The notes below the pieces were generated by a model. The model was not told where the DNA came from, did no database searches, and worked only from the letters and a program-made list of their open reading frames with translations. The position numbers and the translations under genes are program-made. Source: a virus (taxonomy: Duplodnaviria; Heunggongvirae; Uroviricota; Caudoviricetes). Taken from it: DNA of 64,000 nucleotides. Where the stretch lies: the IMG/VR virus record IMGVR_UViG_2875703104_000004; one strand, written 5' to 3'. Positions 16,999-40,120 of this stretch are shown one piece after another. The first letter of the stretch is position 1; each line of letters begins with the position of its first letter.

Positions 16999-17021
16999 TC
17001 ACTACATGTGTTAAATATTAT

Positions 17022-18952: not shown

Positions 18953-19809
18953 TGTTGAAACTTAAACAACCTGCTTACACATATGCCGATATGCTGACTA
19001 GTTGCCGCGAAGGCATAACCGGTAATCCGGGCTTGTTGCTGAAAGTAAATGAAGCAATAACTGATTTGCAAACACTGGCAGCTTCATATAGCGCATCGGC
19101 ATCAACTGGTGAGCTTTATACAATACAACCATTGAAAAACAAAGATAAGGAAGACCCTATTGTTGTCGGTCGGTTAAAGAAATCTGACTTTGTTAAGCTT
19201 TATGGCAATTATGTTGTTGGGAAGAAAAAGCCTGCTCGAGCTATTTATGATTCCCTGATTACTGCTGCTAATGAAAAATGTCCATATTGTGGTGGAATTG
19301 GGCGCCCTCGAAATTTAGATCATTATTTGCCTAAAGCTTACTATCCTCAGTTTTCTATATTGCCAGTTAATCTGGTGCCTGCTTGTCGAGACTGTAATAT
19401 GGATGGCAAAGGGGAAGTTTTTGCAAGAAATGAAGCAGAACAGATCATACATCCCTATTTAGACGATAGCCGTTATTATGATGAACAGTGGATATCGGCT
19501 AGATACTTGGCTGGCAAAAATGATGAGCCAGGAGTTATTGAGTATTTTGTTTCTCCACCGGCTGATTGGGATGAAGCACACAAACAAAGAGTGGAAAAAC
19601 ATTTTAACGATTTTGATTTGTCTTTAAGATATTCGAAAGAGGCTAGTGCGAGATTAGTTGTACTTTTAGCTCTATATAACTCAGTGCTACCACTCTCCAG
19701 AGATAAAAATGCTGCTAAACACCTTATATTTCAAACAATAATTAATAAATCGCCTTTTGTGAATCATTGGGAACGGGTTATGTGTTTGGCTCTTATGTCA
19801 GACTTGTAG
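18952..19809 (+). CDS. HNH endonuclease-motif protein (285 aa); second gene of the candidate defence pair
   Basis: CPYCGG...LDHYLPKAYYP...N...PACRDCN, a zinc-finger HNH signature; translationally coupled to the ATPase gene. Confidence 0.8.
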   Translation: MLKLKQPAYTYADMLTSCREGITGNPGLLLKVNEAITDLQTLAASYSASASTGELYTIQPLKNKDKEDPIVVGRLKKSDFVKLYGNYVVGKKKPARAIYDSLITAANEKCPYCGGIGRPRNLDHYLPKAYYPQFSILPVNLVPACRDCNMDGKGEVFARNEAEQIIHPYLDDSRYYDEQWISARYLAGKNDEPGVIEYFVSPPADWDEAHKQRVEKHFNDFDLSLRYSKEASARLVVLLALYNSVLPLSRDKNAAKHLIFQTIINKSPFVNHWERVMCLALMSDL

Positions 19810-19864
19810 TAATGCTTGAAGTTTTTATTTCTGTTCTAATTTCGTAGTTCCATTTTATTAAATA

Positions 19865-19897
19865 GATACCAAGCTCTATGCATAAGAGCTTGGTATC
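19865..19897. terminator. Perfect 13-bp-stem hairpin (gataccaagctct / agagcttggtatc), candidate bidirectional terminator after the HNH gene
   Basis: Seen directly; flanking sequence only moderately T-rich. Confidence 0.4.
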
Positions 19898-20077
19898 TAT
19901 TGAAATTAAGCTCAATAACTGATCTGCTCTCCATTGATTAACACGTCACAATATTAGTAATGTAACTATTAGGTTTCGAGATTAACTGCGAACTTCTGCT
20001 TTTTGCTCAAAGTGGACTGTTTGGTTCTTTTTCAAGTGTAGTTCGAAATTCAAGGTGGCGTTAAGGCACTTAATGCT

Positions 20078-21204
20078 TTACAACGCTACTTTACTCCATC
20101 CTTTACCTCGATCATCATGATAACGATCGGTTTGCTGTTGCGTTTTATGACCAAGTAGTTTTTGTGTATTTAAACCCTGTTCTTTATACAAACGTTCTGA
20201 TAAAGACCTTTGTTCATGAAATGTTGCGGGAGAACCTTCACCCCAGTTAATTCCTGCTAAATCCCTCGCTTTACTGAAATTCATCGTCAATGTATTGGCT
20301 TTAACCTGCGCGCCGCGTTCAGCCTGTGAGGTAGTACGAAAAAAATGTACAAGGTATGGGCTGACAGCATAGTCACGGCAGCGGGCTACTACATCGCGCA
20401 AACTCCATTTAATCGCATTGAGACGCAGGGAAAGCGGGATGGCGATTTTGCTCCCGGTTTTTTCCTGGATGACATGGAGATGATCATCCCAAATATCGCT
20501 AAATTTCATACGCGAGATATCACCTAACCTCTGGCCGGTAACCAGTGCTAACAGCATGGCATTCCCCATATAACGATGACTGGCATCAGCGATATCAAAG
20601 ATTTTTTGCCACTCTTCAAGACTTAACCGTTGTCGGGTAATTTTTCTTCTGGGCTGTTTGGTGGCTAATGCCGGGTTATAGCCAGGGGGACTTCTCCGTA
20701 GTGTTGCGCCTCTTTGAAAACATCAATCAGTACGGAACGAACTACTTGCGCCATTCTCGGCTGTCCGGCGGCGATATACTCGTCAAGCAACTGGGCTATA
20801 TCCCTGACATCAACGGCTGAAATTAACTTCAGTCCTGCTCGTTCCCTGAGCAAGGATACTGGTTTGGCTTTCTGTTTATAGGTGTTGAGCTTTATATCGC
20901 CACTTTTCAGTCTGTCTTCCTGGATTGCTTGATAGCGATCTAACCAGGTTGACGTTGTGATTGCTTTTCCTTTGCTGGTTGCGATCCTGTCACTGATAGC
21001 TAGAATCTGCCGGGTTCTTTGCTCAGCTAGGCGTGTATTGGCCTCAGTGGCAATAGCAATGGCTTCAGCTTCGTTTGTGCCCAAAGAATGAAACTTCCCG
21101 GTCACTGGATGCTTATATCGCCAATAAACTTTATTTACTTTTCTGCTATAGAGCGGATACAAGTTCGGGACTGAAACATTATTCTTACGTGGTCTGGCTG
21201 CCAT
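20078..21204 (-). pseudogene. int: Lambda-Int-like integrase split by a -1 frameshift in a C5 homopolymer (G run on the + strand at 20685-20689)
   Basis: N-terminal ORF 20665-21204 and C-terminal ORF 20078-20569 are co-linear with the integrase at 1-1119; adding one C restores ...GEVPPGYNPALATKQPRRKITRQRL... Confidence 0.8.
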
Positions 21205-21317
21205 TACTTAAAATCCTTTGTAGAATAATAGAATCACTTTTCTTAATGACAGGAGTAACTAATTCTCCAACTAACTCTGCGTCCTCACGTACTCGCCATA
21301 GTCGACCTTGTTTCATT
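21185..21317 (-). CDS. Small ORF in the xis position (43 aa), just left of the IS911 end
   Basis: ATG at 21317, overlaps the int start; assignment by position only. Confidence 0.3.
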
Positions 21318-21396
21318 GCCGGTGTGTAGTGGCACACTGAATTTGGCCACCTGAACAGAGGTGATATGCTCACCTCAGAACAACACAGGTGCTCCA

Positions 21397-21657
21397 ATGA
21401 AAAAAAGAAATTTCAGCGCAGAGTTTAAACGCGAATCCGCTCAACTGGTTGTTGACCAGAACTACACGGTGGCAGATGCCGCCAAAGCTATGGATATCGG
21501 CCTTTCCACAATGACAAGATGGGTCAAACAACTGCGTGATGAGCGTCAGGGCAAAACACCAAAAGCCTCTCCGATAACACCAGAACAAATCGAAATACGT
21601 GAGCTGAGGAAAAAGCTACAACGCATTGAAATGGAGAATGAAATATTAAAAAANGCN
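21397..21657 (+). pseudogene. IS911 orfA, 5' part, interrupted by the IS30 left end
   Basis: Reading frame ends at the junction with TGTAGATTCAATTGG; Ns at 21654 and 21657. Confidence 0.7.
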
Positions 21658-21723
21658 ACTGTAGATTCAATTGGTCAACGCAACAGTTATGTGAAAACAT
21701 GGGGTTGCGGAGGTTTTTTGAAT

Positions 21724-23332
21724 GAGACGAACATTTACAGCAGAGGAAAAAGCCTCTGTTTTTGAACTATGGAAGAACGGAACAGGCTTCAGTGAAATAG
21801 CGAATATCCTGGGTTCAAAACCCGGAACGATCTTCACTATGTTAAGGGATACTGGCGGCATAAAACCCCATGAGCGTAAGCGGGCTGTAGCTCACCTGAC
21901 ACTGTCTGAGCGCGAGGAGATACGAGCTGGTTTGTCAGCCAAAATGAGCATTCGTGCGATAGCTACTGCGCTGAATCGCAGTCCTTCGACGATCTCACGT
22001 GAAGTTCAGCGTAATCGGGGCAGACGCTATTACAAAGCTGTTGATGCTAATAACCGAGCCAACAGAATGGCGAAAAGGCCAAAACCGTGCTTACTGGATC
22101 AAAATTTACCATTGCGAAAGCTTGTTCTGGAAAAGCTGGAGATGAAATGGTCTCCAGAGCAAATATCAGGATGGTTAAGGCGAACAAAACCACGTCAAAA
22201 AACGCTGCGAATATCACCTGAGACAATTTATAAAACGCTGTACTTTCGTAGCCGTGAAGCGCTACACCACCTGAATATACAGCATCTGCGACGGTCGCAT
22301 AGCCTTCGCCATGGCAGGCGTCATACCCGCAAAGGCGAAAGAGGTATGAACCGCCCCGGGAATCCTGGAGACTAAACTTCCTGAGAAAGAGGTAAACAGG
22401 ATGACTAAAAATACTCGTTTTTCCCCCGAAGTCCGTCAACGGGCAGTCCGTATGGTTCTGGAAAGTCAGAGCGAATATGACTCACAATGGGCGACAATTT
22501 GTTCCATTGCTCCAAAGATTGGCTGTACGCCGGAGACTCTGCGTGTCTGGGTTCGCCAGCATGAGCGGGATACCGGGGGCGGTGATGGAGGGCTCACCAC
22601 CGCTGAACGTCAGCGTCTGAAAGAGCTGGAACGTGAAAATCGTGAACTGCGCCGCAGTAACGATATCCTTCGCCAGGCTTCCGCTTATTTTGCGAAGGCG
22701 GAGTTCGACCGCCTCTGGAAAAAATNCGAATATCACCTGAGACAATTTATAAAACGCTGTACTTTCGTAGCCGTGAAGCGCTACACCACCTGAATATACA
22801 GCATCTGCGACGGTCGCATAGCCTTCGCCATGGCAGGCGTCATACCCGCAAAGGCGAAAGAGGTACGATTAACATAGTGAACGGAACACCAATTCACGAA
22901 CGTTCCCGAAATATCGATAACAGACGCTCTCTGGGACATTGGGAGGGCGATTTAGTCTCAGGTACAAAAAACTCTCATATAGCCACACTTGTAGACCGAA
23001 AATCACGTTATACGATCATCCTTAGACTCAGGGGCAAAGATTCTGTCTCAGTAAATCAGGCTCTTACCGACAAATTCCTGAGTTTACCGTCAGAACTCAG
23101 AAAATCACTGACATGGGACAGAGGAATGGAACTGGCCAGACATCTAGAATTTACTGTCAGCACCGGCGTTAAAGTTTACTTCTGCGATCCTCAGAGTCCT
23201 TGGCAGCGGGGAACAAATGAGAACACAAATGGGCTAATTCGGCAGTACTTTCCTAAAAAGACATGTCTTGCCCAATATACTCAACATGAACTAGATCTGG
23301 TTGCTGCTCAGCTAAACAACAGAACCGCGCTC
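21724..23332 (+). pseudogene. IS30 transposase gene, split by the IS629-like insertion/duplication and missing its last about 25 codons
   Basis: N-part 21724-22370 and C-part 22862-23332 (HWEGDL...GTNENTNGLIRQYFPK); the ORF ends in IS911-derived sequence. Confidence 0.7.
22376..22725 (+). mobile_element. IS629/IS1203-like (IS3 family) left end with orfA, cut off at an N join
   Basis: Terminal TGAACCGCCCCGGG and Orf[42 protein letters not shown]... (recall); sequence returns to IS30 after the N at 22726. Confidence 0.65.
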
Positions 23333-25600
<2,268 letters not shown>

Positions 25601-25636
25601 CCACTACAAAACACTGCTGAGATATTCAATTTTCCA

Positions 25637-26509
25637 GTGCCGGATGTGGCACAAAAGGAGCGGCGCGTGGCAGATCTCGACGATGGTTATACGCGCATTG
25701 CAAATGAGTTGCTGGAAGCTGTGATGCTGGCCGGATTAACACAGCACCAGTTTCTGGTCTTCCTGGCTGTCATGCGCAAAACATATGGCTTTAATAAAAG
25801 ACTGGATTGGGTGAGCAACGAGCAACTTTCCGAATTGACCGGGATATTGCCGCACAAGTGTTCTGCTGCAAAAAGCGTTCTGGTAAAGCGTGGGATTTTT
25901 ATTCAGAGCGGGCGGAATATCGGCATTAATAATGTGGTCAGTGAATGGTCAACATTACCCGAATCAGGTAAGAAAAATAAAGTTTACCTGAAAGAGGTAA
26001 ATTTACCTGAATCAGGTAAGAAAAGTTTACCCAAATCAGGTAAACACAAAAGACAAACTAACAAAAGACAATATAAAACCTTTTTCGTCCGAGAATTCTG
26101 ACGAATCCTCTGACCAGCCAGAAAACGATCTTCCTGTGGTGAAACCGGATGCTGCAATTCAGAGCGGCAGCAAGTGGGGGACAGCAGAAGACCTGATCGC
26201 CGCAGAGTGGATGTTTGACATGGTGAAGACCATCGCGCCATCAGCCAGAAAACCGAATTTGCAGGGTGGGCTAACGATATCCGCCTGATGCGTGAACGTG
26301 ACGGACGTAACCACCGCGACATGTGTGTACTGTTCCGCTGGGCATGCCAGGACAACTTTTGGTCTGGTAACGTGCTGAGCCCGGCCAAACTTCGCGACAA
26401 GTGGACCCAACTCGAAATCAACCGTAACAAACAACAGGCTGGCGTGACAGCCGGAAAACCAAAACTCGACCTGACAAACACTGACTGGATTTACGGGGTG
26501 GATTTATGA
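25637..26509 (+). pseudogene. O: Lambda O-like replication initiator, 5'-truncated by the IS nest and broken by two frameshifts at homopolymer runs (near 26060-26100 and near 26270)
   Basis: VADLDDGYTRIANELLEA...QFLVFLAVMRKTYGFNK and C-terminal ...LSPAKLRDKWTQLEINRNKQ...TDWIYGVDL resemble lambda O by recall; three frames needed to read through. Confidence 0.7.
25955..26043 (+). repeat. Four iteron-like repeats (TTTACCYGAATCAGGTAA-type) followed by an A-rich stretch: candidate ori-lambda-type origin inside O
   Basis: Seen directly; iterons embedded in the O gene are an established lambda feature. Confidence 0.6.
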
Positions 26510-27207
26510 AAAACATCGCCGCACAGATGGTTAACTTTGACCGTGAGCAGATGCGTCGGATCGCCAACAATATGCCGGAACAGTACGACGAAAAGCCGCA
26601 GGTACAACAGGTAGCGCAGATCATCAATGGTGTGTTCAGCCAGTTACTGGCAACTTTCCCGGCGAGCCTGGCTAACCGGGACCAGAACGAACTGAACGAA
26701 ATTCGCCGCCAGTGGGTGCTGGCTTTCCGGGAAAACGGGATCACCACAATGGAACAGGTTAACGCAGGAATGCGCGTAGCCCGTCGGCAGAATCGACCAT
26801 TCCTGCCATCACCCGGGCAGTTTGTTGCATGGTGCCGTGAAGAAGCATCCGTTATTGCCGGACTGCCAAACGCCAGCGAGCTGGTTGATATGGTTTACGA
26901 GTATTGCCGGAAGCGTGGCCTGTATCCGGATGCAGAGTCTTATCCGTGGAAATCAAACGCGCACTACTGGCTGGTTACTAGCCTGTACCAGAATATGCGG
27001 GCCAATGCGCTTACTGATACGGAATTACGGCGCAAGGCTGCCGATGAACTGACTTGTATGACCGCGCGAATTAACCGTGGTGAGGCGATACCTGAACCAG
27101 TAAAACAACTTCCTGTCATGGGCGGTAGACCTCTAAATCGTGTTCAGGCGCTGGCGAAGATCGCAGAAATCAAAGCTAAGTTCGGGCTGAAAGGAGTGAT
27201 GAAATAG
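26506..27207 (+). CDS. P: Lambda P replication protein (DnaB helicase loader), 233 aa
   Basis: MKNIAAQMVNFDREQMRRIANNMPEQYDEKPQVQQVAQIINGVF... near-identical to lambda P by recall. Confidence 0.9.
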   Translation: MKNIAAQMVNFDREQMRRIANNMPEQYDEKPQVQQVAQIINGVFSQLLATFPASLANRDQNELNEIRRQWVLAFRENGITTMEQVNAGMRVARRQNRPFLPSPGQFVAWCREEASVIAGLPNASELVDMVYEYCRKRGLYPDAESYPWKSNAHYWLVTSLYQNMRANALTDTELRRKAADELTCMTARINRGEAIPEPVKQLPVMGGRPLNRVQALAKIAEIKAKFGLKGVMK

Positions 27208-27456
27208 AGCTAAAGTATTAGCTTAAAAATAAAGTATACCTAGCGAATATAATCTAGGACTAGTTGTTATGCCCGAAATGATTGATTGCGTGAGTAACAA
27301 AGTGTCTCTTCCATTGTTGTGAAATCATTTAGCCATAAAGTTTATGCAGAGATTTTATTTTATTTTTGAGTTGATTTTTTTGTAACGATCTGTATATTTC
27401 GCGCCTCTTGTCATACCAGTTATTTTTTTCATTATATTCATAACGTTGATTGAACT

Positions 27457-30400
27457 ATGACCACTGTGAATAAAAAGTTAAAAAAAACTGCATCTGGCGC
27501 GATTACATGGTCGGTAATTGTTACCCAGATATTATCTCCAGTTTCTCTTTCTTTGATCCCAGCAAACAGTTTTGCATCATCTGGTAATAAAGATGTTACG
27601 CAAACTTATGCCAGCGATGAGCATGCAAATAAAGTGGCCTCATTTGCAGCAAGTGCAGGTCAGAGCCTGGCGAATAATAATGCAAGTAGTTTTGCTGTAA
27701 ATACTTTATCAACTCAGGCGACAAAAGAGGTCGTCGACTGGTTGCAACAATATGGCAATGCGCGCATCAAGCTTAATGTCGATGATTCTTTTTCCTTGAA
27801 GGATTCATCATTCGACTTTTTATATCCATGGCTGGATACTCAGGATTATGTGTTATTCAGTCAGACATCACTACATCGTACTGATGACCGAAATCAGACC
27901 AATATTGGTTTGGGGATTCGTCATTTCACTCCTGATAACGCAATGTTGGGTGCGAATGTTTTTTATGATTACGATTTAAGTCGCAGTCACTCTCGTGCAG
28001 GTTTTGGGGTTGAGTACTGGAGGGATTATTTCAGGCTTGGTGTAAATACCTATTTTGGTCTATCTGACTGGAAGAACAGTCGGGATATTGATGATTATCT
28101 GGAAAGACCTGCAAATGGCTGGGATTTTTCTGCTGAAGGATGGCTACCTGCTTATCCGCAATTAGGGGCATCTATTCAGTTTGAAAAATATTATGGTAAA
28201 AATGTCGGGTTATTTGGAAGCGATAACCTTCAGGAAAACCCTTACGCAGTTACTGGGGGAATTTCTTATACACCAGTTCCTCTGATTAAGTTTTCTGCAC
28301 AGCATAAGCAAGGACAGAGCAACGTTCACGATACAACCTTCGGTGTTGAGTTTAATTATCGCCCGGGCGTTTCCCTGGCTGAACAGCTTAGCAGCGATAA
28401 TGTTGCAGTTATGCGAGAAGTCCAGAATCGGCGTTATGATTTTGTTGAACGAAATAACAACATTGTTCTGGAGTACAAGAAGAAGCATGCACTGAAAATC
28501 AGTTTGCCAGAGTCTGTTCAGGGGGAGGGGGAATCAATCATCCCTGTAACACTGACAATCAACAATGCTAGTGGTGGTATCAAGTCTGTACAGTGGAATG
28601 ATAGTGCATTCACTGCGGCTGGCGGCAAGATCAGTGGAAATGGCACATCATGGCAGATCACTTTACCGGCTTATAAAAGCGAAGGTGTAAATTCGTGGAA
28701 TGTTGGAGCCACAGTCCAGGATAACAGAGGCAATGTTTCCAACTATGCCGTTATGAATATCAGCGTTAATAATAGTGGTGTCTCGACAGCGGATTCATCT
28801 TTTACGCTGGATGGGGATTCGTCTCCGACGATCTCTGCTGATGGTCAATCCACTTATCCAATAGTATTAAGCCTGAAAGACAGTAACGGTAAGGCATTAA
28901 CCGGACTGGCTGATGACATTGAAATGTCTGTGGAATTTACTGCGGATAGCAATAGTGCTCGACAGCGTGAAACGGTAACTGCTCCGTCATTAGGCGCGGT
29001 AGAGGAAATCTCTGCTGGTGTATATCGCTCTGTTCTGGCTGCTGGTTCGCAGGCTGGGACGGTACGTGTAACTGCAAAAGTTCAGGGAAAAACATTTACT
29101 CTCAGTATTAAGCAAACAGCAGCAACAGAACCTGATTCTGAGGTCAGTGCTGTTTTAACCGCTGCACCAGCAGAACAGGTAGTTGGTTACAATATCAATC
29201 TACAACTGGCAGTGAAGGATTCACAAGGAAATGCAATCACTGGTGATAACACTCTGAGCTTTTATGCTCTTAACCAGGCAGAAGGAGTCGAGTTTGGGAC
29301 TGTAACGGAAAAAGACGGTGTCTATAGCGCGACAGTAACTTCAAAACGAGCTGGTAAGATTACTATCGGTGTTAAATCTGATAGTCATGATTTCTCAGGT
29401 GTTAAGAAAGAAATCACCTTTATTGAGGACCGGCAGCAGGTTACATTCTCTCAGTTTGAAGCCAGCCAAAATAATGCATTGGCTGATGGAAAACAGAGAA
29501 ATATGGTAACTGTAAGCCTTGCGGACCGTTTCGGCAATGTTGTTCCTGGTTATGCTGTCACATTGTCTTTACCAGCAGGGATAACTCAAGTTGGTGGTGA
29601 ACATGCTGTTTCAACTGACGAAAATGGTAATGCTATTTTTGCGTTAATAAGCTCCACTCCGGGGTCTTACGTGATTACAGCTCATGCTGGTTCTCAGATG
29701 TCTACTGAGTTAACAGTGACCTTTGCATCAAATATGACCGGAGCTTCACTGTCACTGACGCCTGAAAGCAGTAGTTTAATTTCCAATATTCCTGCTAATG
29801 GTAAGGATGCAGCGGTATTAGATGTGCAGCTGACAAATACGAATGCGTCGGTCAATGGGCAAAAGATTCAGCTCATCACCTCATCTGAAGGATTATCTGT
29901 ACCAACAAATATCGTGACTGATTCAACAGGGCATGTTTCTGTTCCGCTTACAACGGTGAAAGCTGGTGAGTACACGGTGACTGCACGGGTGACTGACGGT
30001 TCCCATAGCGTGGAATCTGGCAGCGTTAAGTTAACTTTTGTGCCCGATGTTGCTTCTGCAGAACTTACTATGAGTGTATCAAAACAGGAGATTGTGGCCG
30101 ATGGCAGTGAAAACGCAACAGTAAACATTCAGTTGGTTGATGCGAATAACAATGCGTTTACAGGTGAGGTGGATTTAACGATTACACCATCGACGGGAGC
30201 ATCATTGACCAGTAGTAATCTGCAACTGGATGCTCATGGACAGGCAACAACGCAGTTCACTGCATCGAAATCAGGCCAGTACACAATTCAGGCCGAGTAT
30301 GTTCTGGATGGGAAACGCATAACCGCAAGCCAGAATATTGATGCCGTGACGGATGTGAAGGGGGCTGTGTTGGAGATCACATCATCTGCATCTTCGGCTG

Positions 30401-31008
30401 TAGTGAGCGATACCAACAATCTGGTATTTACGTTACTGTTGAAAAGTAAGTCAGGCGAAGCATTAAGTGGTCGAGCATTGAATGTTAAGACATCTGGGCC
30501 GTCTAAATATGGTGCGTTGGTGGTTGATAAAACCACAGTAACGACTGATGAGAACGGTCAGGCTACGGTAAGCGTACATGGTCGAACGGTTGGTTCGTAT
30601 AAATTAACGGCGACCTTAAACGAACTTGGCAGTGATGTTAGCGCGGTGAAATCATTCTCCCTGTACGCTGATGACGCAAATGGAGTATTGACTCTAACAA
30701 AAGATCCTGGTTATGAGACAAACGATGGCTCTCCAGTAGGTATTTATGCTCGATTTGTCGATCATTTTGGAAACCCATTATCTGGTACGGTTGAGTTTTC
30801 TGCTGGTAGTGAAGATAGTCCAGACTCTCAACGGGTCAAAATGGAGCCTGCTACAGTAACGTTACACTGGACAGGTAATGCAGCTTCGGAATTCAGCACC
30901 TATGAAAGTGGTTATCACTGGATTAAGGCCAAAATAACGAATAGCAAAAATACATATGAGAAAACAATAAGGACTTATGTTGTAAAACTACCTGAAAAGG
31001 ATAGTTAA
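27457..31008 (+). CDS. Inverse autotransporter (intimin/invasin-family) outer-membrane adhesin with repeated Ig-like (Big) domains, 1183 aa
   Basis: Signal peptide, N-terminal beta-barrel-like region (YPWLDTQDYVLFSQTSLHRTDDRNQTNIGLGIRHF...) then repeated about 100-aa segments; AT-rich gene. Confidence 0.75.
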   Translation: MTTVNKKLKKTASGAITWSVIVTQILSPVSLSLIPANSFASSGNKDVTQTYASDEHANKVASFAASAGQSLANNNASSFAVNTLSTQATKEVVDWLQQYGNARIKLNVDDSFSLKDSSFDFLYPWLDTQDYVLFSQTSLHRTDDRNQTNIGLGIRHFTPDNAMLGANVFYDYDLSRSHSRAGFGVEYWRDYFRLGVNTYFGLSDWKNSRDIDDYLERPANGWDFSAEGWLPAYPQLGASIQFEKYYGKNVGLFGSDNLQENPYAVTGGISYTPVPLIKFSAQHKQGQSNVHDTTFGVEFNYRPGVSLAEQLSSDNVAVMREVQNRRYDFVERNNNIVLEYKKKHALKISLPESVQGEGESIIPVTLTINNASGGIKSVQWNDSAFTAAGGKISGNGTSWQITLPAYKSEGVNSWNVGATVQDNRGNVSNYAVMNISVNNSGVSTADSSFTLDGDSSPTISADGQSTYPIVLSLKDSNGKALTGLADDIEMSVEFTADSNSARQRETVTAPSLGAVEEISAGVYRSVLAAGSQAGTVRVTAKVQGKTFTLSIKQTAATEPDSEVSAVLTAAPAEQVVGYNINLQLAVKDSQGNAITGDNTLSFYALNQAEGVEFGTVTEKDGVYSATVTSKRAGKITIGVKSDSHDFSGVKKEITFIEDRQQVTFSQFEASQNNALADGKQRNMVTVSLADRFGNVVPGYAVTLSLPAGITQVGGEHAVSTDENGNAIFALISSTPGSYVITAHAGSQMSTELTVTFASNMTGASLSLTPESSSLISNIPANGKDAAVLDVQLTNTNASVNGQKIQLITSSEGLSVPTNIVTDSTGHVSVPLTTVKAGEYTVTARVTDGSHSVESGSVKLTFVPDVASAELTMSVSKQEIVADGSENATVNIQLVDANNNAFTGEVDLTITPSTGASLTSSNLQLDAHGQATTQFTASKSGQYTIQAEYVLDGKRITASQNIDAVTDVKGAVLEITSSASSAVVSDTNNLVFTLLLKSKSGEALSGRALNVKTSGPSKYGALVVDKTTVTTDENGQATVSVHGRTVGSYKLTATLNELGSDVSAVKSFSLYADDANGVLTLTKDPGYETNDGSPVGIYARFVDHFGNPLSGTVEFSAGSEDSPDSQRVKMEPATVTLHWTGNAASEFSTYESGYHWIKAKITNSKNTYEKTIRTYVVKLPEKDS

Positions 31009-31018
31009 CAAAATTGAA

Positions 31019-31047
31019 TGGGGAGGGCTTAGCCCTCCCTCTTTTTA
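31019..31047. terminator. Bidirectional rho-independent terminator between the convergent adhesin and esterase genes
   Basis: GGGGAGGGC-TTA-GCCCTCCC hairpin with a T-run on the + strand and an A-run (T-run on the - strand) upstream. Confidence 0.6.
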
Positions 31048-32088
31048 CAGGTTAGCGTTTGGGTTTTGTTGTTGGGGAGCTGTTTTTATAGGCGCTCCCA
31101 GGTTTTTAGTAAACCACTCAACGACTCTGTTTATAATAATTGGCTGATACCATGTCTTATCGCCATGCTCGGCCCCTTCTACCAGCACGTACTCAGCGTT
31201 ATCGCCGTTCTTCTTCAACATCCTGAATAGTTTGGCGCTTTGCTCAGGTGAAACCAGAGTGTCTTTGCTACCATGCATAATAAGAAATGGGGGTTTTACT
31301 CCTTTCATATGTCCGATTGGACTGGCGTTTAGCGCTTTTTCTTTTGACGCTGTGATGGGGGCTCCCGCAAAATTTCTGAATGCAGGGCCATTGATCATTA
31401 AGGCTTCGGTTACGGCAGGAGAGCGATGAACCTCCTGCACTGATTCAGGGAACCCCTCGCCAATATTCAACAAGTCAGAAATCCCATAAAGTGTGGCAAC
31501 TGCCTGAACATCTGAGGATTGCTGAAGAAAGTCACCTTTATCAAAGGTTTTGTCACCATTTGTAGTTCCCATCATCTGAGCAAGCCATCCACCGGCAGAG
31601 TCACCCAGAACTCCGATTCTTTGAGGATCAATCCCATAATTGCTGGCATGCTCTCTCAGGTAACGTATTGCAGCTTTTCCATCCTCAACTGGTGCTGGAA
31701 ATGTATCAGGAATTGTTCTGTATTCTACAGCGGCCACAACAAAACCAGCTTCTGCCAGAGCCATTCTCATTTCAATAAATTTGTCATGTTCAGAAGACAT
31801 GAATCCGCCGCCGGGATAATAAATAATGGCTGGTTTTAAATCATTTGTTCGCGGGACAAGAACTGACATGTGAAGCTGTCTGACAGAACGAGTTCCTTTT
31901 ATCTGGGAATAAACAACATCACCAATGAGATCGACTTGGTTTCTGGTCGGTGAAACACTAATGATATCTGCACCCGGGGTGTAACCAGGAAGATTAGTCT
32001 GGACAGGTGTTGCACAACTCCCGACCGACATGGCCATTGACATACCATACAATAGTGTTGCAGATGATAATATCTTGTTAATTTTCAT
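31045..32088 (-). CDS. Secreted/lipoprotein alpha/beta-hydrolase (esterase/lipase), 347 aa
   Basis: Signal peptide with possible lipobox (MSVGSC); oxyanion-hole YPGGGF and nucleophile-elbow GDSAGG motifs. Confidence 0.75.
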   Translation of the reverse strand: MKINKILSSATLLYGMSMAMSVGSCATPVQTNLPGYTPGADIISVSPTRNQVDLIGDVVYSQIKGTRSVRQLHMSVLVPRTNDLKPAIIYYPGGGFMSSEHDKFIEMRMALAEAGFVVAAVEYRTIPDTFPAPVEDGKAAIRYLREHASNYGIDPQRIGVLGDSAGGWLAQMMGTTNGDKTFDKGDFLQQSSDVQAVATLYGISDLLNIGEGFPESVQEVHRSPAVTEALMINGPAFRNFAGAPITASKEKALNASPIGHMKGVKPPFLIMHGSKDTLVSPEQSAKLFRMLKKNGDNAEYVLVEGAEHGDKTWYQPIIINRVVEWFTKNLGAPIKTAPQQQNPNANL

Positions 32089-32535
32089 GTTTTACATGCC
32101 TTGACTTATCGGATGAAATTCTCTTACTGAATTTAACGGCAGTTTAATAGCCGTACAACTCGTGGTAGCCAGGGAAATATCCCAGTCGTGGTTAAGGTTG
32201 TACTTGACGGCTATTATTTCAACAATGCTTAAAGTGAGAGCTTAAGGTTATGCGTATGTTTTACAGTCCGAGTAGATTCTGACCAATAGCTTCTTTGTAT
32301 AATTCTGTCAGAAATAAATCTTGGCTTGCATGAAGTTTGAGACCTTATCTTGTTTGATTATGAATAATCAATTCGCCATAATTGTATCACCGGAGCCTGA
32401 ACAACTCCGGTGACTTCTGCGCTAAACGGGGACGTTTATGCGCACACACAATCCAAACTCTCTTCTCCCTTCACAGATGCAGAAATGCACCTGCGTTTTT
32501 TTGCATCCAGCGTCTGACCTCTGTGGAGGTGAAGC

Positions 32536-32991
32536 GTGAACCTACCACAAGATGGCATCAAACTGCATCGCGGTAACTTCATCGCTATCGGCCAGCAGAT
32601 CCAGCCTTATCTGGAGGACGGAAAATGCTTTCGCATGGTGCTTAAACCGTGGCGTGAGAAACGCAGTCTTTCCCAGAATGCACTCAGCCATATGTGGTAC
32701 AGCGAAATCAGTGAATACCTCATCAGCAGGGGGAAATCGTTCGCTACCGCAGCATGGGTAAAAGATGCTCTCAAACACACATACCTCGGTTATGAAACCA
32801 AGGACCTGGTTGATGTCGTAACCGGCGAAATCACTACTATCCAGTCGTTACGCCATACCTCCGATCTTGATACCGGAGAGATGTATGTCTTCCTGTGTAA
32901 GGTTGAAGCCTGGGCGATGAATATTGGCTGCCACCTGACTATTCCGCAGAGCTGCGAGTTCCAGCTGCTGCGCGACAAGCAGGAGGCGTAA
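32536..32991 (+). CDS. ybcN: YbcN-like nin-region protein (151 aa), GTG start
   Basis: [15 protein letters not shown]... matches DLP12 YbcN by recall. Confidence 0.7.
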
Positions 32992-33161
32992 TGGCTACAC
33001 CGCTTATTCGTGTCATGAACGGACACATCTACAAAGTACCAAATCGTCGTAAGTGTAAACCTGAGCTGAAGCCATCCGAAATACCAACACTGCTCGGGTA
33101 TACCGCCAGCCTGGTTGATAAAAAATGGTTGCGACTGGCAGCAAGGAGGAATCATGGCTGA
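32991..33161 (+). CDS. ninE: NinE-like protein (56 aa)
   Basis: My own translation [56 protein letters not shown]; TAATG coupling to ybcN. Confidence 0.7.
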   Translation: MATPLIRVMNGHIYKVPNRRKCKPELKPSEIPTLLGYTASLVDKKWLRLAARRNHG

Positions 33162-33444
33162 TTTAAGAAAAGCAGCGCGTGGTCGGGAATGCCAGGTAAG
33201 AATCCCTGGCGTATGTAATGGCAATCCTGAAACGTCAGTACTGGCACATATCCGGCTGGCTGGATTGTGCGGTACCGGTATCAAACCGCCAGACCTGATT
33301 GCCACCATTGCATGTTCTGCCTGCCACGACGAAATCGACCGTCGCACGCATTTTGTTGACGCTGGATATGCAAAAGAATGCGCGCTGGAAGGTATGGCGA
33401 GAACACAGGTTATCTGGTTGAAAGAGGGGGTTATTGAGGCGTGA
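33154..33444 (+). CDS. ybcO: YbcO-like nin-region protein with Cys-rich motif (96 aa)
   Basis: [26 protein letters not shown]...; RBS AGGAGG upstream. Confidence 0.7.
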
Positions 33445-33803
33445 ATACCTACAGCATCACATTACCCTGGCCTCCGAGCAATAATCGCTATTACCGCCAT
33501 AATCGTGGGCGCACGCACGTCAGCGCAGAGGGGCAGGCATACTGCGATAACGTCGCCCGAATCATTAAAAACGCAATGCTGGATATCGGCTTGGCTATGC
33601 CAGTGAAAATCAGCATTGAGTGCCACATGCCGGATCGCCGTCGCCGTGACCTTGATAATCTGCAAAAGGCCGCTTTTGACGCACTCACCAAAGCAGGTTT
33701 CTGGCTGGATGATGCTCAGGTCGTTGATTACCGCGTTGTGAAGATGCCCGTTACCAAAGGTGGGAAGCTGGAGCTGACTATCACTGAACTGGGAGATGAA
33801 TGA
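33441..33803 (+). CDS. rusA: RusA Holliday junction resolvase (120 aa)
   Basis: [34 protein letters not shown]...[34 protein letters not shown]... matches E. coli RusA by recall. Confidence 0.9.
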
Positions 33804-33940
33804 TGTTTGAGTCTTATATGGCAGAGCGTCTTCGCCGCCGCTGGGTGCGCCTGCGCTTATATCGTTTTCCTGGTTCTGTTTTGACCGATTACCGAATACT
33901 GAAGAATTACGCCAAAACCCTGACAGGAGCAGGAGTATGA
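33803..33940 (+). CDS. ylcG: YlcG-like small protein (45 aa)
   Basis: My own translation [45 protein letters not shown]. Confidence 0.55.
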   Translation: MFESYMAERLRRRWVRLRLYRFPGSVLTDYRILKNYAKTLTGAGV

Positions 33941-34025
33941 AGTCAGAGATAACAATCAACTAATACTGTTTTGTTGATTTTTGCTTGTAATTGGCGTTCT
34001 GGTCTGATTTTTGTGGAGTAAGTTG

Positions 34026-34268
34026 ATGCGTGATATTCAGATGGTTCTTGAGCGTTGGGGAGCGTGGGCGGCTAATAATCATGAAGATGTGACCTGGTCG
34101 TCCGTTGCCGCCGGTTTTAAGGGATTAATTCCTTCAAAAGTAAAATCTCGCCCGCAATGTTGTGACGATGACGCGATGATCATTTGCGGGTGCATGGCCC
34201 GTCTGAAAAAGAACAACAGCGATTTACACGATTTATTAGTAGATTATTATGTAAGTGCTTGGCATTAA
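34026..34268 (+). pseudogene. quuD: DLP12-type Q antiterminator (quuD-like), 3'-truncated at a deletion junction near 34255
   Basis: [26 protein letters not shown]...[26 protein letters not shown] then out-of-family residues and stop. Confidence 0.7.
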
Positions 34269-34386
34269 CTTTCCCGTATAGATCCAGCTTGTTACTGTCT
34301 TTATTATAAATTTCAGCTGCCTGAGCAGACATCGCCATCAGTACTGATGCAGCTACAGCAGAAATTGCCACTGTTAATTTTTTCAT
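34255..34386 (-). pseudogene. nmpC: 5' remnant of an NmpC/OmpC-type porin gene (signal peptide plus about 20 mature residues)
   Basis: [44 protein letters not shown] then divergence at the same junction that truncates quuD. Confidence 0.6.
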
Positions 34387-34813
34387 TGTACGCCCTTTTT
34401 TTGAACTTTTATTAAAAAATGATGTCACTGCACTACAAATATTCATCTAATCAATGAGATTATTTCAAGATGTAAGTTTTAGTTTCTCATTTAATTTGTG
34501 AAGTAGATCTCTATTTTTATCTGAACCTTTTCTATCTAATCCTATTCATGGCTCTTGTCTGAACAAAAATAAATCTATTAGCTAATTTATATTAATGGCA
34601 CTTATTTATAAGTGCTCTATAATTCTTTAGCTTAATTTAAACAAACTAAAAATAACATCGGAAATTATTAACTGGTTATTTGTTGAAGTTTTCTTATGCA
34701 TTTGTGGTGGTGTTTTGAACACTCGGTGGCATTCTCACAAATATCATTTAGTAGTTTACGTACGTAAAAAATTGGTTATGCTGTTAAGAGTGGTTACTTC
34801 GTCACACAGCTTA

Positions 34814-34845
34814 AACCCGCCGTCGAGCGGGTTTTTCCATTTTTT
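34814..34845 (+). terminator. Rho-independent terminator upstream of the lysis genes (tR'-like)
   Basis: aaacccgc-cgtcga-gcgggttt hairpin plus T-run; position between Q and the holin, analogous to lambda tR'. Confidence 0.55.
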
Positions 34846-34974
34846 GAGTCTCGATATTAGCTGATAACCCAATACCTGAGTTATTCACTGACTCCGAATC
34901 TGTTACGTTTCTGCCTTTATTGCGATACGTAGTATCCCCTTAATTTACACCCGCTTTGTCTGCGAGGTGGGGTT

Positions 34975-35190
34975 ATGAAATCCATGGATAAGTTAACAAC
35001 GGGTGTCGCCTATGGTACCTCAGCAGGTAGTGCCGGGTACTGGTTTTTACAGTTGCTCGATAAAGTCACGCCCTCACAGTGGGCGGCAATAGGTGTGCTG
35101 GGTAGCCTGGTATTTGGCCTGCTGACGTACCTGACAAACCTTTATTTCAAGATTAAAGAAGATAAGCGCAAGGCTGCGAGAGGTGAATAA
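34975..35190 (+). CDS. essD: Holin (71 aa)
   Basis: [53 protein letters not shown]...; first gene of the lysis cassette. Confidence 0.85.
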
Positions 35191-36730: not shown

Positions 36731-37360
36731 ATAATTAAAAACGATGCACACCGGGTTTTTACCGCGTTAATGATTCGCGGGTTTATCCCGGTGCGATGGT
36801 GGAAGAAACAGGAAGCTGTATTACAGAAAGTGCTACTACTGTATCCCGATGCGATGTATGTAATGTGAGTCAGATAATGGCACAGGATGTGGTGATGTGG
36901 CAGTCTGGAACACAGGATATATTGTCAGAATAAGACCCGTAGGAATAAAAATGAAAAGACGCCTTTTACTACTTTTTCTGTTATCTGTCCTGGCAGTGGG
37001 ATGCTCGCAGCAAAAAGCTGATGAGCCCCGGCAATTAGTGACGGTGTATCCACGATATCCGGAATATGCTGCAGCAAATTATATCAAGGGGCTGGTTGAG
37101 GTTAAGTTCGATATTGGTGCTGATGGGACTGTGACACGGATCGTTTTTCTCCGCTCAGAGCCTCATAATTTGTTTCGTGATGAAGTGGTGAAGGCCATGG
37201 CGAAATGGCGATTTGAAAAGAATCGCCCCTGTCAGGGAGTGAAGAGACAATTTATCTTTACGCCGTCACGTCCTTGATGCTTCCAGGTAGAGAGGGGCTG
37301 GAAGCAGGAGAAAAATGAAAGAGCCAGCGGTTATATTTTTGTCATGGCTGACGAGGAATG
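36731..37360. repeat. 630-bp segment repeated at 57433-58062 (carries the 3' end of the truncated tail-fibre ORF and a lipoprotein gene); followed by an N at 37361
   Basis: Seen directly; copies near-identical. Confidence 0.85.
36951..37277 (+). CDS. Lipoprotein with TonB-C-terminal-like domain (108 aa); copy 1
   Basis: MKRRLLLLFLLSVLAVGCSQ lipobox; ...YPRYPEYAAANYIKGLVEVKFDIGADGTVTRIVFLRSEPHNLFRDEVVKAMAKWRFE resembles the TonB C-terminal fold motif. Confidence 0.6.
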   Translation: MKRRLLLLFLLSVLAVGCSQQKADEPRQLVTVYPRYPEYAAANYIKGLVEVKFDIGADGTVTRIVFLRSEPHNLFRDEVVKAMAKWRFEKNRPCQGVKRQFIFTPSRP

Positions 37361-37483
37361 NGGTAAACGACGCACTTGTGCCGGCACATAATAGCAAGCA
37401 CCATAATAGATCAGATTCGATTCTTGCTGTAAGTGATAATTATTCTCGTTTTCGGGTCCTTTCCGTCGATCCAACAGGTTACG

Positions 37484-37495
37484 GGGCGGCGACCT
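37484..37495 (+). promoter_or_regulatory. cos: cosN (12-nt cohesive-end sequence GGGCGGCGACCT) with cosB-like sequence downstream; cos site 1
   Basis: Exact match to the lambda cohesive end by recall, followed by CGCGG(T)TTTTC(A/G)CTATTTATGAAAATTTT, about 188 bp upstream of the Nu1-like gene. Confidence 0.75.
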
Positions 37496-37671
37496 CGCGG
37501 TTTTTCACTATTTATGAAAATTTTTCAGGGAAAATCGTGTCGGTACTTCTCGAATATAACTTTTTGTTTTTTTTAATATTGCATCCGTAAAGGTCCGACA
37601 TGAAAGTGTCCGAAAATGCCTTTTTCTGGCGTTTTCATGTCGGGCCTTGTATTTGATAATGGGTTGTTTTC

Positions 37672-38220
37672 ATGAAGGTTAATAAAAAGAGGCTTGCCGA
37701 AATTTTCAACGTGGACCCGCGGACGATTGAACGCTGGCAGTCTCAGGGACTCCCTTGCGCCTCCAAAGGTAGTAAGGGCATTGAATCTGTATTTGATACT
37801 GCCATGGCAATTCAGTGGTATGCGCAGAGGGAAACTGATATCGAAAACGAAAAGCTCCGCAAAGAACTGGACGATTTGCGTGCGGCAGCGGAGTCAGATT
37901 TACAACCCGGCACCATTGACTATGAACGCTACCGGCTCACAAAAGCGCAGGCAGATGCGCAGGAACTGAAAAATGCCCGTGAAGACGGAGTAGTGCTGGA
38001 AACTGAACTGTTTACCTTCATTCTGCAACGTGTGGCACAGGAGATTTCGGGGATACTTGTGCGTGTGCCGTTGACATTACAGCGTAAATATCCGGACATT
38101 TCACCATCACACCTTGATGTGGTGAAAACTGAAATCGCGAAAGCCTCCAATGTTGCAGCTAAGGCCGGTGAAAACGTGGGCGGGTGGATCGATGATTTCA
38201 GACGCGCAGAAGGCAGCTAA
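37672..38220 (+). CDS. nu1: Terminase small subunit (Nu1-like), 182 aa
   Basis: Winged-HTH N-terminus ...[12 protein letters not shown]...; conserved ...[18 protein letters not shown]...[27 protein letters not shown]... as in lambda Nu1 (recall). Confidence 0.85.
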
Positions 38221-40120
38221 TGCAGCCGGTGCGATAGCTACAGGGCTTTTATCTCTCATTATTCCTGTTCCACTGACGACAGTTCAGTGGGCCAATAAAC
38301 ATTATTACCTTCCTAAAGAGTCGTCTTATACCCCGGGGCGATGGGAAACACTGCCGTTTCAGGTTGGCATCATGAACTGTATGGGCAACGATCTGATTCG
38401 CACGGTTAACCTGATTAAATCTGCCCGTGTTGGTTATACAAAGATGTTGCTGGGAGTGGAGGCTTATTTTATTGAGCATAAATCACGCAACAGCCTTCTT
38501 TTTCAGCCCACGGACTCAGCTGCTGAAGATTTTATGAAATCTCATGTTGAGCCAACGATAAGGGATGTTCCTGCATTGCTGGAGCTGGCTCCATGGTTCG
38601 GAAGAAAACACCGCGATAATACGCTCACCCTGAAGCGTTTTTCCTCCGGTGTGGGGTTCTGGTGTCTGGGTGGTGCGGCAGCAAAAAACTACCGTGAAAA
38701 ATCCGTGGATGTGGTCTGTTATGACGAGCTTTCCTCGTTCGAACCGGATGTTGAAAAAGAGGGTTCGCCAACCCTGCTGGGGGATAAACGTATTGAGGGC
38801 TCTGTATGGCCAAAATCCATTCGCGGCTCGACGCCTAAAATCAAAGGCTCCTGCCAGATCGAAAAAGCCGCTAACGAGTCGGCACACTTCATGCGTTTTT
38901 ATGTGCCCTGTCCGCACTGTGGGGAGGAGCAGTATCTGAAATTTGGCGATGATGCCTCGCCTTTCGGTCTTAAGTGGGAGAAGAATAAGCCAGAAAGTGT
39001 TTTCTACCTTTGTGAGCATCATGGCTGTGTGATCCATCAGTCTGAGCTTGACCAGAGTAACGGGCGGTGGATCTGTGAAAACACGGGCATGTGGACCCGT
39101 GACGGCCTGATGTTTTTCAGCGCCCGGGGTGATGAAATTCCGCCGCCGCGCTCCATCACTTTCCATATCTGGACGGCGTACAGTCCGTTCACCACCTGGG
39201 TACAGATTGTCTATGACTGGCTGGATGCACTGAAAGATCCCAACGGCCTGAAAACCTTTGTGAACACCACGCTGGGCGAGACCTGGGAAGAGGCTGTGGG
39301 CGAAAAACTCGATCACCAGGTGCTGATGGATAAGGTTGTGCGTTACACGGCGGCGGTGCCTGCCCGGGTGGTTTATCTGACGGCGGGCATTGACTCGCAG
39401 CGAAACCGTTTTGAGATGTATGTCTGGGGATGGGCTCCGGGAGAGGAAGCCTTTCTGGTGGATAAAATCATCATTATGGGGCGTCCCGATGAGGAAGAGA
39501 CGCTGTTACGTGTGGATGCGGCGATCAACAAAAAATACCGCCATGCAGACGGAACCGAAATGACCATTTCCCGTGTCTGCTGGGACATCGGGGGGATCGA
39601 TGGCGAAATCGTTTATCAGAGGTCAAAAAAACACGGTGTTTTCCGGGTGCTGCCGGTAAAAGGCGCGTCTGTCTATGGCAAGCCGGTGATCACCATGCCG
39701 AAAACCCGCAATCAGCGGGGCGTTTATCTGTGTGAAGTGGGGACGGACACCGCAAAAGAAATTCTCTATGCCCGTATGAAAGCCGAGCCCACGCCTGCGG
39801 ATGAAGCCACGTCGTATGCCATCCGTTTTCCTGATGATCCGGAGATTTTTTCGCAGACAGAGGCGCAGCAACTGGTCGCGGAAGAGCTTGTGGAGAAGTG
39901 GGAAAAAGGAAAGATGCGTCTGCTGTGGGATAACAAAAAGCGGCGTAACGAAGCGCTGGACTGCCTGGTGTATGCCTACGCGGCATTACGTGTGTCCGTG
40001 CAACGCTGGCAGCTTGATCTGGCTGTACTGGCAAAATCCCGGGAAGAAGAGACGACCCGGCCAACCCTTAAAGAACTGGCAGCGAAGCTGTCCGGAGGAG
40101 TGAATGGTTACAGTCGCTGA
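38192..40120 (+). CDS. A: Terminase large subunit (gpA-like)
   Basis: Co-linear with lambda gpA (…RWETLPFQ…[13 protein letters not shown]…[21 protein letters not shown]…) by recall; ATG 38192 overlaps the Nu1 end. Confidence 0.9.

Follow-up and report, generated by a model that had tools for sequence, protein, structure and literature searches.

A lambdoid prophage of Escherichia coli carries an inverse autotransporter gene and a lipoprotein esterase gene as two separate modules between P and the nin region

Introduction

Intimin, invasin, FdeC and the SinH-type proteins, all members of the inverse autotransporters (IATs; type Ve), are colonisation factors and vaccine candidates. A census of IATs in Escherichia coli (Goh et al. 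2019; PMC6714894) comprised intimin, FdeC, YeeJ and IatA to IatD, with conserved chromosomal positions for the six that were studied, and overexpression of IatB, IatC or IatD led to surface display and biofilm formation (PMC6714894). Here, we describe an IAT gene in a phage slot: in a stretch of 64,000 nucleotides from the IMG/VR record IMGVR_UViG_2875703104_000004 (hereafter, the window), which holds an E. coli prophage, a gene for a 1183-aa IAT and a convergent gene for a 347-aa lipoprotein esterase lie between the replication gene P and the nin region.

In lambda, this slot is occupied by ren, and in DLP12-like phages by ren-emrE-ybcK-ybcL-ybcM. The genes described here resemble such lambdoid morons in their position between P and ybcN/ninB, in their presence or absence between otherwise colinear phages, in their deviant base composition and in having their own terminator and a putative promoter of their own. 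Unlike the DLP12-type cargo, they encode different proteins, and an IAT barrel is encoded in none of 50,697 phage records. Whereas the IAT and BD-FAE families themselves are known, an uncharacterised IAT lineage that resides in a phage slot and is common in pandemic ExPEC (extraintestinal pathogenic E. coli) lineages is new. For this locus, we establish that the genes are intact, to which family and fold they belong, which slot they occupy and that they assort independently, as well as their distribution, the variation in repeats and alleles, and purifying selection, and we consider it probable that it comprises two morons of the lysogenic-conversion type, namely an IAT acting in adhesion or biofilm formation and an exported glycan esterase.

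Results

The 1183-aa protein is an inverse autotransporter

An earlier note on this DNA, made from the letters of the sequence, had read the larger ORF as a giant adhesin of the intimin/invasin family with an N-terminal barrel and many Ig-like repeats. Pfam bears out the family: IAT_beta (PF11924) matches residues 57-334 with an E-value of 4e-101 (338.6 bits, the cut-off being 22.3; positions 3-279 of the 279-position profile), and the passenger holds five Big_1 and six Invasin_D3 stretches. Searches against the Protein Data Bank (PDB) aligned residues 97-341 with residues 2-245 of the 245-residue invasin barrel 4e1t (E 9e-74) and likewise recovered the intimin barrel 4e1s (E 7e-63), while the invasin ectodomain 1cwv aligned to residues 672-919. 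A full-length AlphaFold (AF2) model, built on an alignment of 60 distant representatives of 50%-identity clusters, reached a mean predicted local distance difference test (pLDDT) value of 83.7; an alignment-free model of the last 214 residues (pLDDT 36.5) was unusable. In the full-length model, the barrel has pLDDT values mostly above 90 from about residue 120 to 340 and 12 predicted strands between residues 118 and 299. Foldseek superposed it on 4e1t and 4e1s with a template-modelling (TM) score of 0.89 at 45-48% identity, and the proposed barrel fold thus stood up to a structural check. Outside the barrel, the matches of the whole model were generic Ig chains, such as those of nuclear pore proteins and alpha-2-macroglobulin. 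By sequence and modelled fold, the 1183-aa ORF belongs to the inverse autotransporters of the intimin/invasin family. 'Giant' was an overstatement, however, as the protein is mid-sized among related IATs, which range from 604 to 6890 aa among cluster representatives.

The predicted Sec signal peptide (Table 1) was called by inspection of the sequence only; AF2 places a helix at residues 10-32, and the same N-terminus is kept in a homologue from Escherichia albertii (see below). Between the cleavage site and the barrel there are only about 16 residues if the Pfam match is taken as its start, or about 55 up to the barrel proper, and no LysM domain was matched by Pfam anywhere in the protein. Behind the barrel, the model shows eight all-beta Ig-like passenger domains. 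Five of them, spanning residues 558-1075, are Big_1 domains with E-values of 9e-8, 1e-20, 1e-12, 3e-13 and 3e-8, modelled as beta-sandwiches with pLDDT values of ~80-94. Neither BLASTP nor TRF found internal repeats in the 1183-aa form.

For the C-terminal tip, Pfam gave nothing above threshold (the Big_1 match had an E-value of 0.056), and the PDB sequence search gave nothing at E<=10. Compared with the 150 nearest 50%-cluster representatives, it matched only its own cluster well and gave two borderline matches (E ~2-3e-4). Given its weak alignment to the internal Big_1 domains and its all-beta model, we regard the tip as a divergent Ig-like domain. It is not a C-type-lectin-like cap: no lectin family was matched by Pfam, and the modelled tip is devoid of helices.

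The passenger would be displayed at the cell surface, to judge from these sequence and model features. In the mechanism we propose, the 40-residue Sec signal peptide would take the protein to the periplasm, the 12-stranded invasin/intimin-type barrel would insert in the outer membrane, and the C-terminal passenger would be threaded out as an eight-domain rod made of the D00-like domain, the 119-aa repeat, five Big_1 domains and the Ig-like tip. The distal, variable domains may then bind a ligand, resulting in adhesion or biofilm formation. By analogy with invasin, intimin, FdeC, YeeJ and IatB/C/D, a role in adhesion or biofilm is the most likely one.

Table 1 Features of the locus and its surroundings (positions in the window).
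Feature	Position	Strand	Evidence or remark
Inverse autotransporter (type Ve) surface protein, 1183 aa	27457..31008	+	Pfam, PDB sequence matches, AF2, Foldseek
Predicted Sec signal peptide, aa 1-40	27457..27576	+	K-rich n-region, 20-residue hydrophobic core, SFA-SS cleavage site at aa 38-41
Beta-barrel translocator, aa 57-341	27625..28479	+	Pfam, 4e1t alignment, AF2
First passenger domain, intimin D00-like, aa 342-441	28480..28779	+	PDB 6tqd (intimin), E 9e-10; all-beta in AF2
Single copy of the 357-bp unit (119 aa, one Ig-like domain)	28766..29114	+	blastn register, approximate; ~aa 442-557
Five Big_1/Invasin_D3 Ig-like domains, aa 558-1075	29128..30681	+	per-domain Pfam and AF2
Lineage-specific C-terminal tip domain, aa 1076-1183	30682..31005	+	AF2: 8 strands, no helix, pLDDT ~85
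347-aa BD-FAE-family lipoprotein (alpha/beta-hydrolase; carbohydrate acetyl/feruloyl-esterase type)	31045..32088	-	Pfam, PDB, PHROG
IAT module	~27197-31040	+	includes upstream region and terminator hairpin
Esterase module	31041-32352	-	homology borders
GC-rich hairpin and T run, IAT-module intrinsic terminator	31020..31046	.	T run overlaps esterase stop codon
AT-rich IAT upstream region	27208..27456	+	GC 0.30; two sigma-70-like elements
Esterase upstream (promoter) region, right end of foreign DNA	32089..32352	-	GC 0.38
Replication gene P, left anchor of the slot	26506..27207	+	PHROG 109, P-like helicase loader, E 1e-97; RefSeq 'replication protein P'
Common lambdoid DNA (orf33/ylcH region) into ybcN, outside the cargo	32353..32535	+	homology; annotated 33-aa hypothetical protein and ybcN
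Duplications	1410-1956, 2506-2784, 5121-5384, 7789-8115, 9563-9846, 13199-14040, 22208-22865, 58609-58909		

The phage-slot protein stands apart from described inverse autotransporters

Invasin (InvA) of Yersinia pseudotuberculosis provides the best barrel match (4e1t, 48% identity) and shares with the prophage IAT both the lack of a LysM domain and a passenger of Big_1/Invasin_D3 domains. The two differ in that invasin has five passenger domains instead of eight, a C-type-lectin-like tip that forms an integrin-binding unit with D4 instead of an all-beta Ig-like tip, and a location on the core chromosome instead of a prophage. Intimin (Eae) of enteropathogenic and enterohaemorrhagic E. coli has the same barrel fold (4e1s, 45% identity) and the same D00-like first domain (6tqd), and intimin subtypes, too, combine a conserved anchor with variable distal alleles. 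The prophage protein, unlike intimin, is without LysM, lectin D3, Tir partner and the context of the locus of enterocyte effacement (LEE). With FdeC (EaeH), YeeJ, IatA (YchO), IatB (SinH), IatC and IatD, it shares the PF11924 barrel and an Ig-like passenger, and its conserved translocator and variable passenger follow the pattern reported for IatB and IatC (PMC6714894); FdeC, YeeJ and IatA-D lie at fixed chromosomal sites, whereas this IAT lies in a phage slot.

A comparison with chromosomal IATs such as FdeC, YeeJ and SinH had been suggested before. Against the NCBIfam equivalog models that matched it, the protein scored far below cut-off throughout (score/cut-off in bits: IatC N-terminal 406/2400, intimin 349/1400, SinH 319/999, Ilp 310/1125, YrIlm 305/750, Inv 287/710, YchO 272/508), and we therefore rejected an assignment to IatC, intimin, SinH/IatB, YchO/IatA, Ilp, YrIlm or Inv. 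Among 1.84 billion representatives of 50%-identity clusters, only its own cluster is more than 46% identical to it. The suggested comparison was thereby carried through for SinH, and the protein is set apart from E. coli IATs by NCBIfam scores and cluster identity, with FdeC, YeeJ and IatD not compared individually. It represents an eighth, unnamed lineage beside the seven published E. coli groups, all of which occupy fixed chromosomal or LEE sites. The gene is missing from the published census table, although strain SaT040, one of the 126 genomes analysed there, carries a 1302-aa form (PMC6714894). PHROGs 7803 and 16344 hold the protein as 'unknown function'. Literature searches on prophage inverse autotransporters and on invasins of sequence types (ST) 1193 and 131 returned only work on SinH, FdeC and other IATs, and the RefSeq accessions led to no papers.

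As to its origin, E. albertii NBRC 107761 (NZ_BBMY01000075.1, 8001-8711) encodes a homologue that is truncated by the end of its contig and is 80% identical in aa over residues 1-237. This gene has the core genes ydcSTUV-patD as its immediate upstream neighbours, and the 8 kb before it are free of phage genes; it was, besides one contaminant contig, the single relative outside E. coli in a scan of one genome per species. The chromosomal setting in E. albertii suggests that a lambdoid phage may have captured a chromosomal Escherichia IAT gene. The contaminant, a 357-bp contig in an assembly labelled 'Moraxella osloensis' (CAXORL010000232.1), is 90% identical to IAT residues 432-543; its length is exactly one repeat unit, and contaminating E. 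coli DNA with the repeat collapsed into one contig is its most likely source.

Two independently assorting modules fill the P-to-nin slot

The two convergent ORFs, 36 bp apart, lie between the stop of P (27207) and ybcN (32536), exactly as described previously. GC content is 0.43 in the insert and 0.30 in the spacer between P and the IAT, as compared to 0.53 in P and 0.51 in ybcN-rusA, and the GC content at third codon positions is 0.36-0.39 in the insert versus 0.58-0.61 in the adjoining phage genes. This difference in base composition from the neighbouring phage genes is a hallmark of morons. Phage 4A7 and the ST131 isolate 86 hold ren-emrE-ybcK in the same slot, and the earlier placement of AT-rich DNA where other lambdoid phages carry ren was thus correct. 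No Rfam RNA family was found in 25000-35000, and no tRNA in the whole window.

The earlier note had treated this DNA as a single 5.3-kb insert reaching to 32535, with a bidirectional terminator shared by both genes. It is indeed foreign, but comprises 5.1 kb, ends at 32352 and, by homology, consists of two independently assorting morons. On the P side, homology to ren-carrying phages stops at ~27196 (the blastn break against phage 4A7 being at 27196). Homology in common with esterase-carrying phages extends over 31041-34266, and esterase-less lambdoid prophages match only from 32353 on; the interval 32353-32535 recurs at ~88-93% identity across E. coli prophages in their thousands, DLP12 of K-12 among them, and at 92.9% in the phage 82 record X92588.

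All four possible states of the slot between P and ybcN were seen: IAT and esterase, IAT only, esterase only (after ren-emrE-ybcK) and neither. The esterase occurs after ren-emrE-ybcK and without the IAT in eight free lambda-like phage records, corresponding to seven phages (4A7, 4C10, D2, 1W, 3W, Perceval and PhiR47_2), and in ST131 isolate 86; these esterases are 97.5-99.1% identical at the nucleotide level in E. coli and 98.3% at the aa level in phages. Conversely, the IMG/VR loci L015, L016, L030, L031 and L039 carry the IAT without the esterase and have ybcN ~300 bp further on. L029 lacks the esterase as well, but its ybcN is partial and lies ~1.8 kb beyond the IAT.

The hairpin between the two genes (31020-31040, GGGAGGGC-TTA-GCCCTCCC followed by a T run) has a predicted free energy of -21 kcal/mol (z -3.5), and the homology break against esterase-only phages falls exactly at 31041, between hairpin and T run. 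Loci devoid of the esterase keep this hairpin directly after the IAT stop codon, whereas the esterase of phage 4A7 is adjoined there by another hairpin. The hairpin is therefore the terminator of the IAT gene itself, which the esterase merely abuts. The proposed terminator is thus real, but it travels with the IAT module instead of being shared, and we rejected a single 5.3-kb insert with a designed bidirectional terminator.

Upstream of the IAT, two sigma-70-like elements are found at 27371-27398 (TTGATT-16-TATATT) and 27408-27435 (TTGTCA-16-CATTAT). All three allele classes of the phage IAT share the conserved 249-bp spacer, and its last ~70 bp, both elements included, are conserved with E. 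albertii, where nucleotide homology starts 66 bp before the ATG. Since a promoter scan gave no enrichment over shuffled sequences, the case for an autonomous IAT promoter is argued from this conservation instead. With its own putative promoter region and its terminator, the IAT could be expressed from a repressed or defective prophage. The gene is oriented with transcription from pR, so that the hairpin sits where lambda has tR2. In lambda, N-modified polymerase reads through such terminators; during lytic growth, N-antiterminated transcription from pR may therefore read through the IAT module.

That the locus might be an assembly artefact, with a chromosomal adhesin locus mis-joined to phage DNA, had to be considered since outside ~16835-34266 the window is colinear with none of 5426 complete E. 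coli genomes and eight duplications of a kind typical of assembly-graph errors occur in it. However, the finished ST1193 chromosome MCJCHV-1 matches 23323-34266 colinearly at 99.95% identity, more than 20 finished chromosomes have a 7-kb block from P to rusA that is 100% identical, the same gene order recurs in independent assemblies and IMG/VR contigs, and the duplications all lie outside 27208-32535. A mis-join within 27208-32535 was rejected on the strength of the finished-genome colinearity, and we regard the artefact explanation as highly improbable. The probable assembly problems lie elsewhere in the window, with none in the IAT-esterase region. The order P-IAT-esterase-ybcN, found in ST1193 chromosomes (100% identity), in strain FDAARGOS_1264 and in IMG/VR, confirms the earlier view of the region as prophage cargo.

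The convergent gene encodes a lipobox-bearing serine hydrolase of the BD-FAE family

As previously described, the second gene encodes an alpha/beta-hydrolase that is predicted to be a lipoprotein. It matches Pfam BD-FAE (PF20434; 153.9 bits against a cut-off of 26.8, E 6e-45) and PHROG 3341 'esterase' (E 2e-129), and aligns end to end with a metagenomic esterase (PDB 6nkf, E 2e-37), with the GDSxGG, HG..D and GA.H motifs kept. Further alignments were obtained with the Bacteroides carbohydrate esterases 6mly, 6xyc and 6tkx and with acetyl-xylan esterases. GDSAGG starts at residue 162 and the oxyanion motif PGGGF at residue 92, and the predicted triad Ser164/Asp276/His308 is intact in the alignment to 6nkf. 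The N-terminus (MKINK...MSVGS-C25), with its lipobox SVGSC and Cys25, fits the PROSITE pattern PS51257 when checked by hand. By its sequence, the protein is a lipobox-bearing serine hydrolase of the BD-FAE family. In lipoproteins, the residue after the lipid-modified cysteine (the +2 rule) sets inner-membrane retention versus outer-membrane sorting, and the alanine at +2 after Cys25 predicts sorting to the outer membrane.

As its type member, the BD-FAE family has a feruloyl/acetyl-xylan esterase (PMC8165983). The prophage enzyme carries a lipoprotein signal, which the Bacteroides enzymes encoded in polysaccharide utilization loci do not, and it resembles the NanS-p sialate O-acetylesterases of Shiga toxin (Stx) prophages in being exported prophage cargo. 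NanS-p proteins are SGNH-type hydrolases with a fold other than BD-FAE. We propose that the esterase, transcribed opposite to the IAT, would act as an outer-membrane-anchored lipoprotein and most likely strips acetyl-type esters from a glycan, be it an envelope polysaccharide or imported host or dietary sugars.

The IAT rod and the esterase, singly or together, could instead serve the phage, either by protecting the lysogen from superinfection through masking of outer-membrane receptors or de-acetylation of O-antigen or capsule that phages use as receptors, or by clumping that aids phage spread. Prophage glycan-modifying enzymes that block superinfection are well established, with Oac of Sf6 as an example; moreover, other functions directed by phage against phage occur in and around the slot, with a Septu-type PtuAB pair at the attL edge of this prophage and with an OmpC-like porin and bor/iss in its relatives. 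In contrast, neither the IAT nor the esterase matches any PADLOC defence model, the chromosomal, non-phage homologue of E. albertii fits a host-type function, and the independent assortment of the two genes argues against their being one system. We hold a benefit to the phage to be distinctly improbable as the explanation of the pair, and favour lysogenic conversion.

The locus is widespread, and its IAT is variable and under purifying selection

DNA of the IAT barrel is present in 560 of the 5426 complete E. coli genomes (~10%), ST1193 and ST131 among them, and the esterase in 681. Four carriers of the P-to-rusA block, MCJCHV-1, 09-02E, AVS0096 and MS8320, are documented ST1193 (PMC11488385). 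The ST131 strain SaT040 has a 1302-aa IAT in the same slot and the same order P-IAT-esterase-ybcN, and FDAARGOS_1264 has a 1421-aa IAT and the esterase in this slot of a prophage at icd. IMG/VR yielded 37 loci with the IAT; in the 29 that include the barrel end, the IAT starts ~250 bp after P, except for L036, which has too little upstream DNA to show P.

The IAT occurs in lengths of 1183, 1302, 1421 and 1540 aa, which correspond to one to four tandem copies of a 357-bp unit, all in frame, each unit encoding exactly one Ig-like domain. In locus L003, TRF reports a period of 357 with 3.0 copies at 98% match, as compared to no repeat in the window. Three allele classes were distinguished: the anchor and barrel have 3.5% variable columns, whereas 12-21% of columns vary in the five distal Ig domains (from the third on) and in the tip, where identity is 83-94%. 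Between classes, the ratio of nonsynonymous to synonymous substitution rates (dN/dS) is 0.15-0.20 at a dS of ~0.19, and 0.10-0.23 for passenger and tip, pointing to purifying selection and not decay. In L017, a near-identical barrel (dS 0.005) is joined to a passenger with a dS of 0.27-0.42, a contrast that indicates intragenic recombination.

The gene is being lost in some ST1193 sub-lineages. In 09-02E (locus L004, 1558-6422) and at least eight close genomes, the IAT is split by an IS3-family element that leaves ~117 codons beyond the break, and in EC67 the region is interrupted by ISEc23. These interruptions, together at least ten closely related genomes, could mean that the genes are silent or decaying baggage, that is, fossils of transfer that are not expressed (for instance, AT-rich DNA silenced by H-NS) and have no role in the strain. 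The defective state of the prophage, the upstream GC content of 0.30 with no clear ribosome-binding site, and the report that no IatB protein could be detected when its native strain was grown in the laboratory (PMC6714894) are in line with this. Yet the IAT ORF is intact here, full-length sequences recur on many contigs, some on hundreds, the dN/dS values at this dS amount to long-term purifying selection, every change in repeat number is in frame, and the promoter-proximal DNA is conserved with E. albertii. In addition, silencing in the laboratory would not equal a lack of function. Mere baggage is thus an unlikely account, if less so than a benefit to the phage, and two conversion-type morons remain our preferred reading.

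Several points count against that reading. The E. coli prophage in the window is defective, with frameshifted int and O and with insertion sequence (IS) elements replacing the immunity region, as in MCJCHV-1, which leaves the cargo 'grounded' here; with regard to transfer by virions, the IAT barrel was found in none of the phage records, in any slot. Interruption of the IAT in several ST1193 genomes implies that it is dispensable at least there. The promoter-like matches upstream of the IAT do not exceed shuffled expectation, and no obvious Shine-Dalgarno sequence precedes its ATG. Pfam and PDB sequence searches revealed no recognisable receptor-binding fold in the tip, the esterase scored below every NCBIfam equivalog cut-off, which makes its substrate a guess, and the literature searched held no data on expression, localisation or binding of this IAT.

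By analogy, the earlier proposal of the IAT as a candidate for lysogenic conversion is reasonable. A stronger version, in which this is the first recognised IAT borne by temperate phages, captured from an E. albertii-type source, that alters adhesion, biofilm formation or colonisation of the lysogen, is tuned in reach and antigenicity by exchange of passenger modules and by one to four copies of the 119-aa stalk domain, and aids the pandemic clones ST131 and ST1193, is one we offer only tentatively and would not expect to hold in full. A phage cargo slot is a plausible route for the horizontal spread of a type Ve adhesin, and the phage-slot location accounts for the patchy carriage of the IAT. 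If the protein is surface-exposed and expressed in vivo, it would be a candidate antigen and conversion factor, typing and vaccine design would have to take its allele classes and stalk-length variants into account, and the linked but independent esterase, which viable lambda-like phages already carry, would be a second candidate conversion gene. Should both genes be silent, the locus would be a well-documented case of moron turnover in the P-nin slot.

Other features of the prophages and of the window

In MCJCHV-1, the block is part of a prophage at icd that is degraded and has sitABCD at its end. The prophage of FDAARGOS_1264, by comparison, is ~46 kb long and apparently complete, with int, xis, exo/bet/gam, cI, cro, O, P, Q, lysis, terminase, head/tail and J genes. 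It is unusually cargo-rich: besides the IAT it carries the esterase, iss (bor-like) and, beyond the tail-fibre genes, sitABCD.

The Septu-type pair (17435-19809) lies between icd and the frameshifted int, at the attL edge of the IAT prophage, and consists of a 505-aa PtuA (PADLOC PDLC00282, 792.7 bits) and a 285-aa HNH partner (PDC-M01B, 380.9 bits). Downstream of the cargo, at 34026-34270, quuD (antiterminator Q) retains only ~76 of its 127 codons, and no OmpC/NmpC-like porin gene follows; relative to MCJCHV-1 and phage 4A7, the window lacks ~1.28 kb at this point, with an overlap of 13 bp at the junction. The truncation is either a further sign of a defective prophage or an assembly gap.

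The eight duplications (Table 1) are exact or near-exact, tandem or near-tandem, and 129-422 bp long, and look like assembly-graph artefacts. Positions 1-14365 (14.4 kb) span only 12,988 bp in finished genomes. This stretch is the early region of a different prophage, which in finished ST1193-type genomes (EcPF40) is ~55 kb away from the IAT locus; its junction with 16835-34266, across which the window is colinear with none of the complete genomes, may be a mis-join or a real rearrangement. Finally, a second copy of the post-lysis region with nohD, terminase and portal genes (57433-64000, as compared to 36731-42598) follows right after the tail-fibre genes. The two copies are 99.8% identical over 630 bp and then 93.6% over 4.8 kb, and the second block represents either another lambdoid prophage in tandem or a mis-join.

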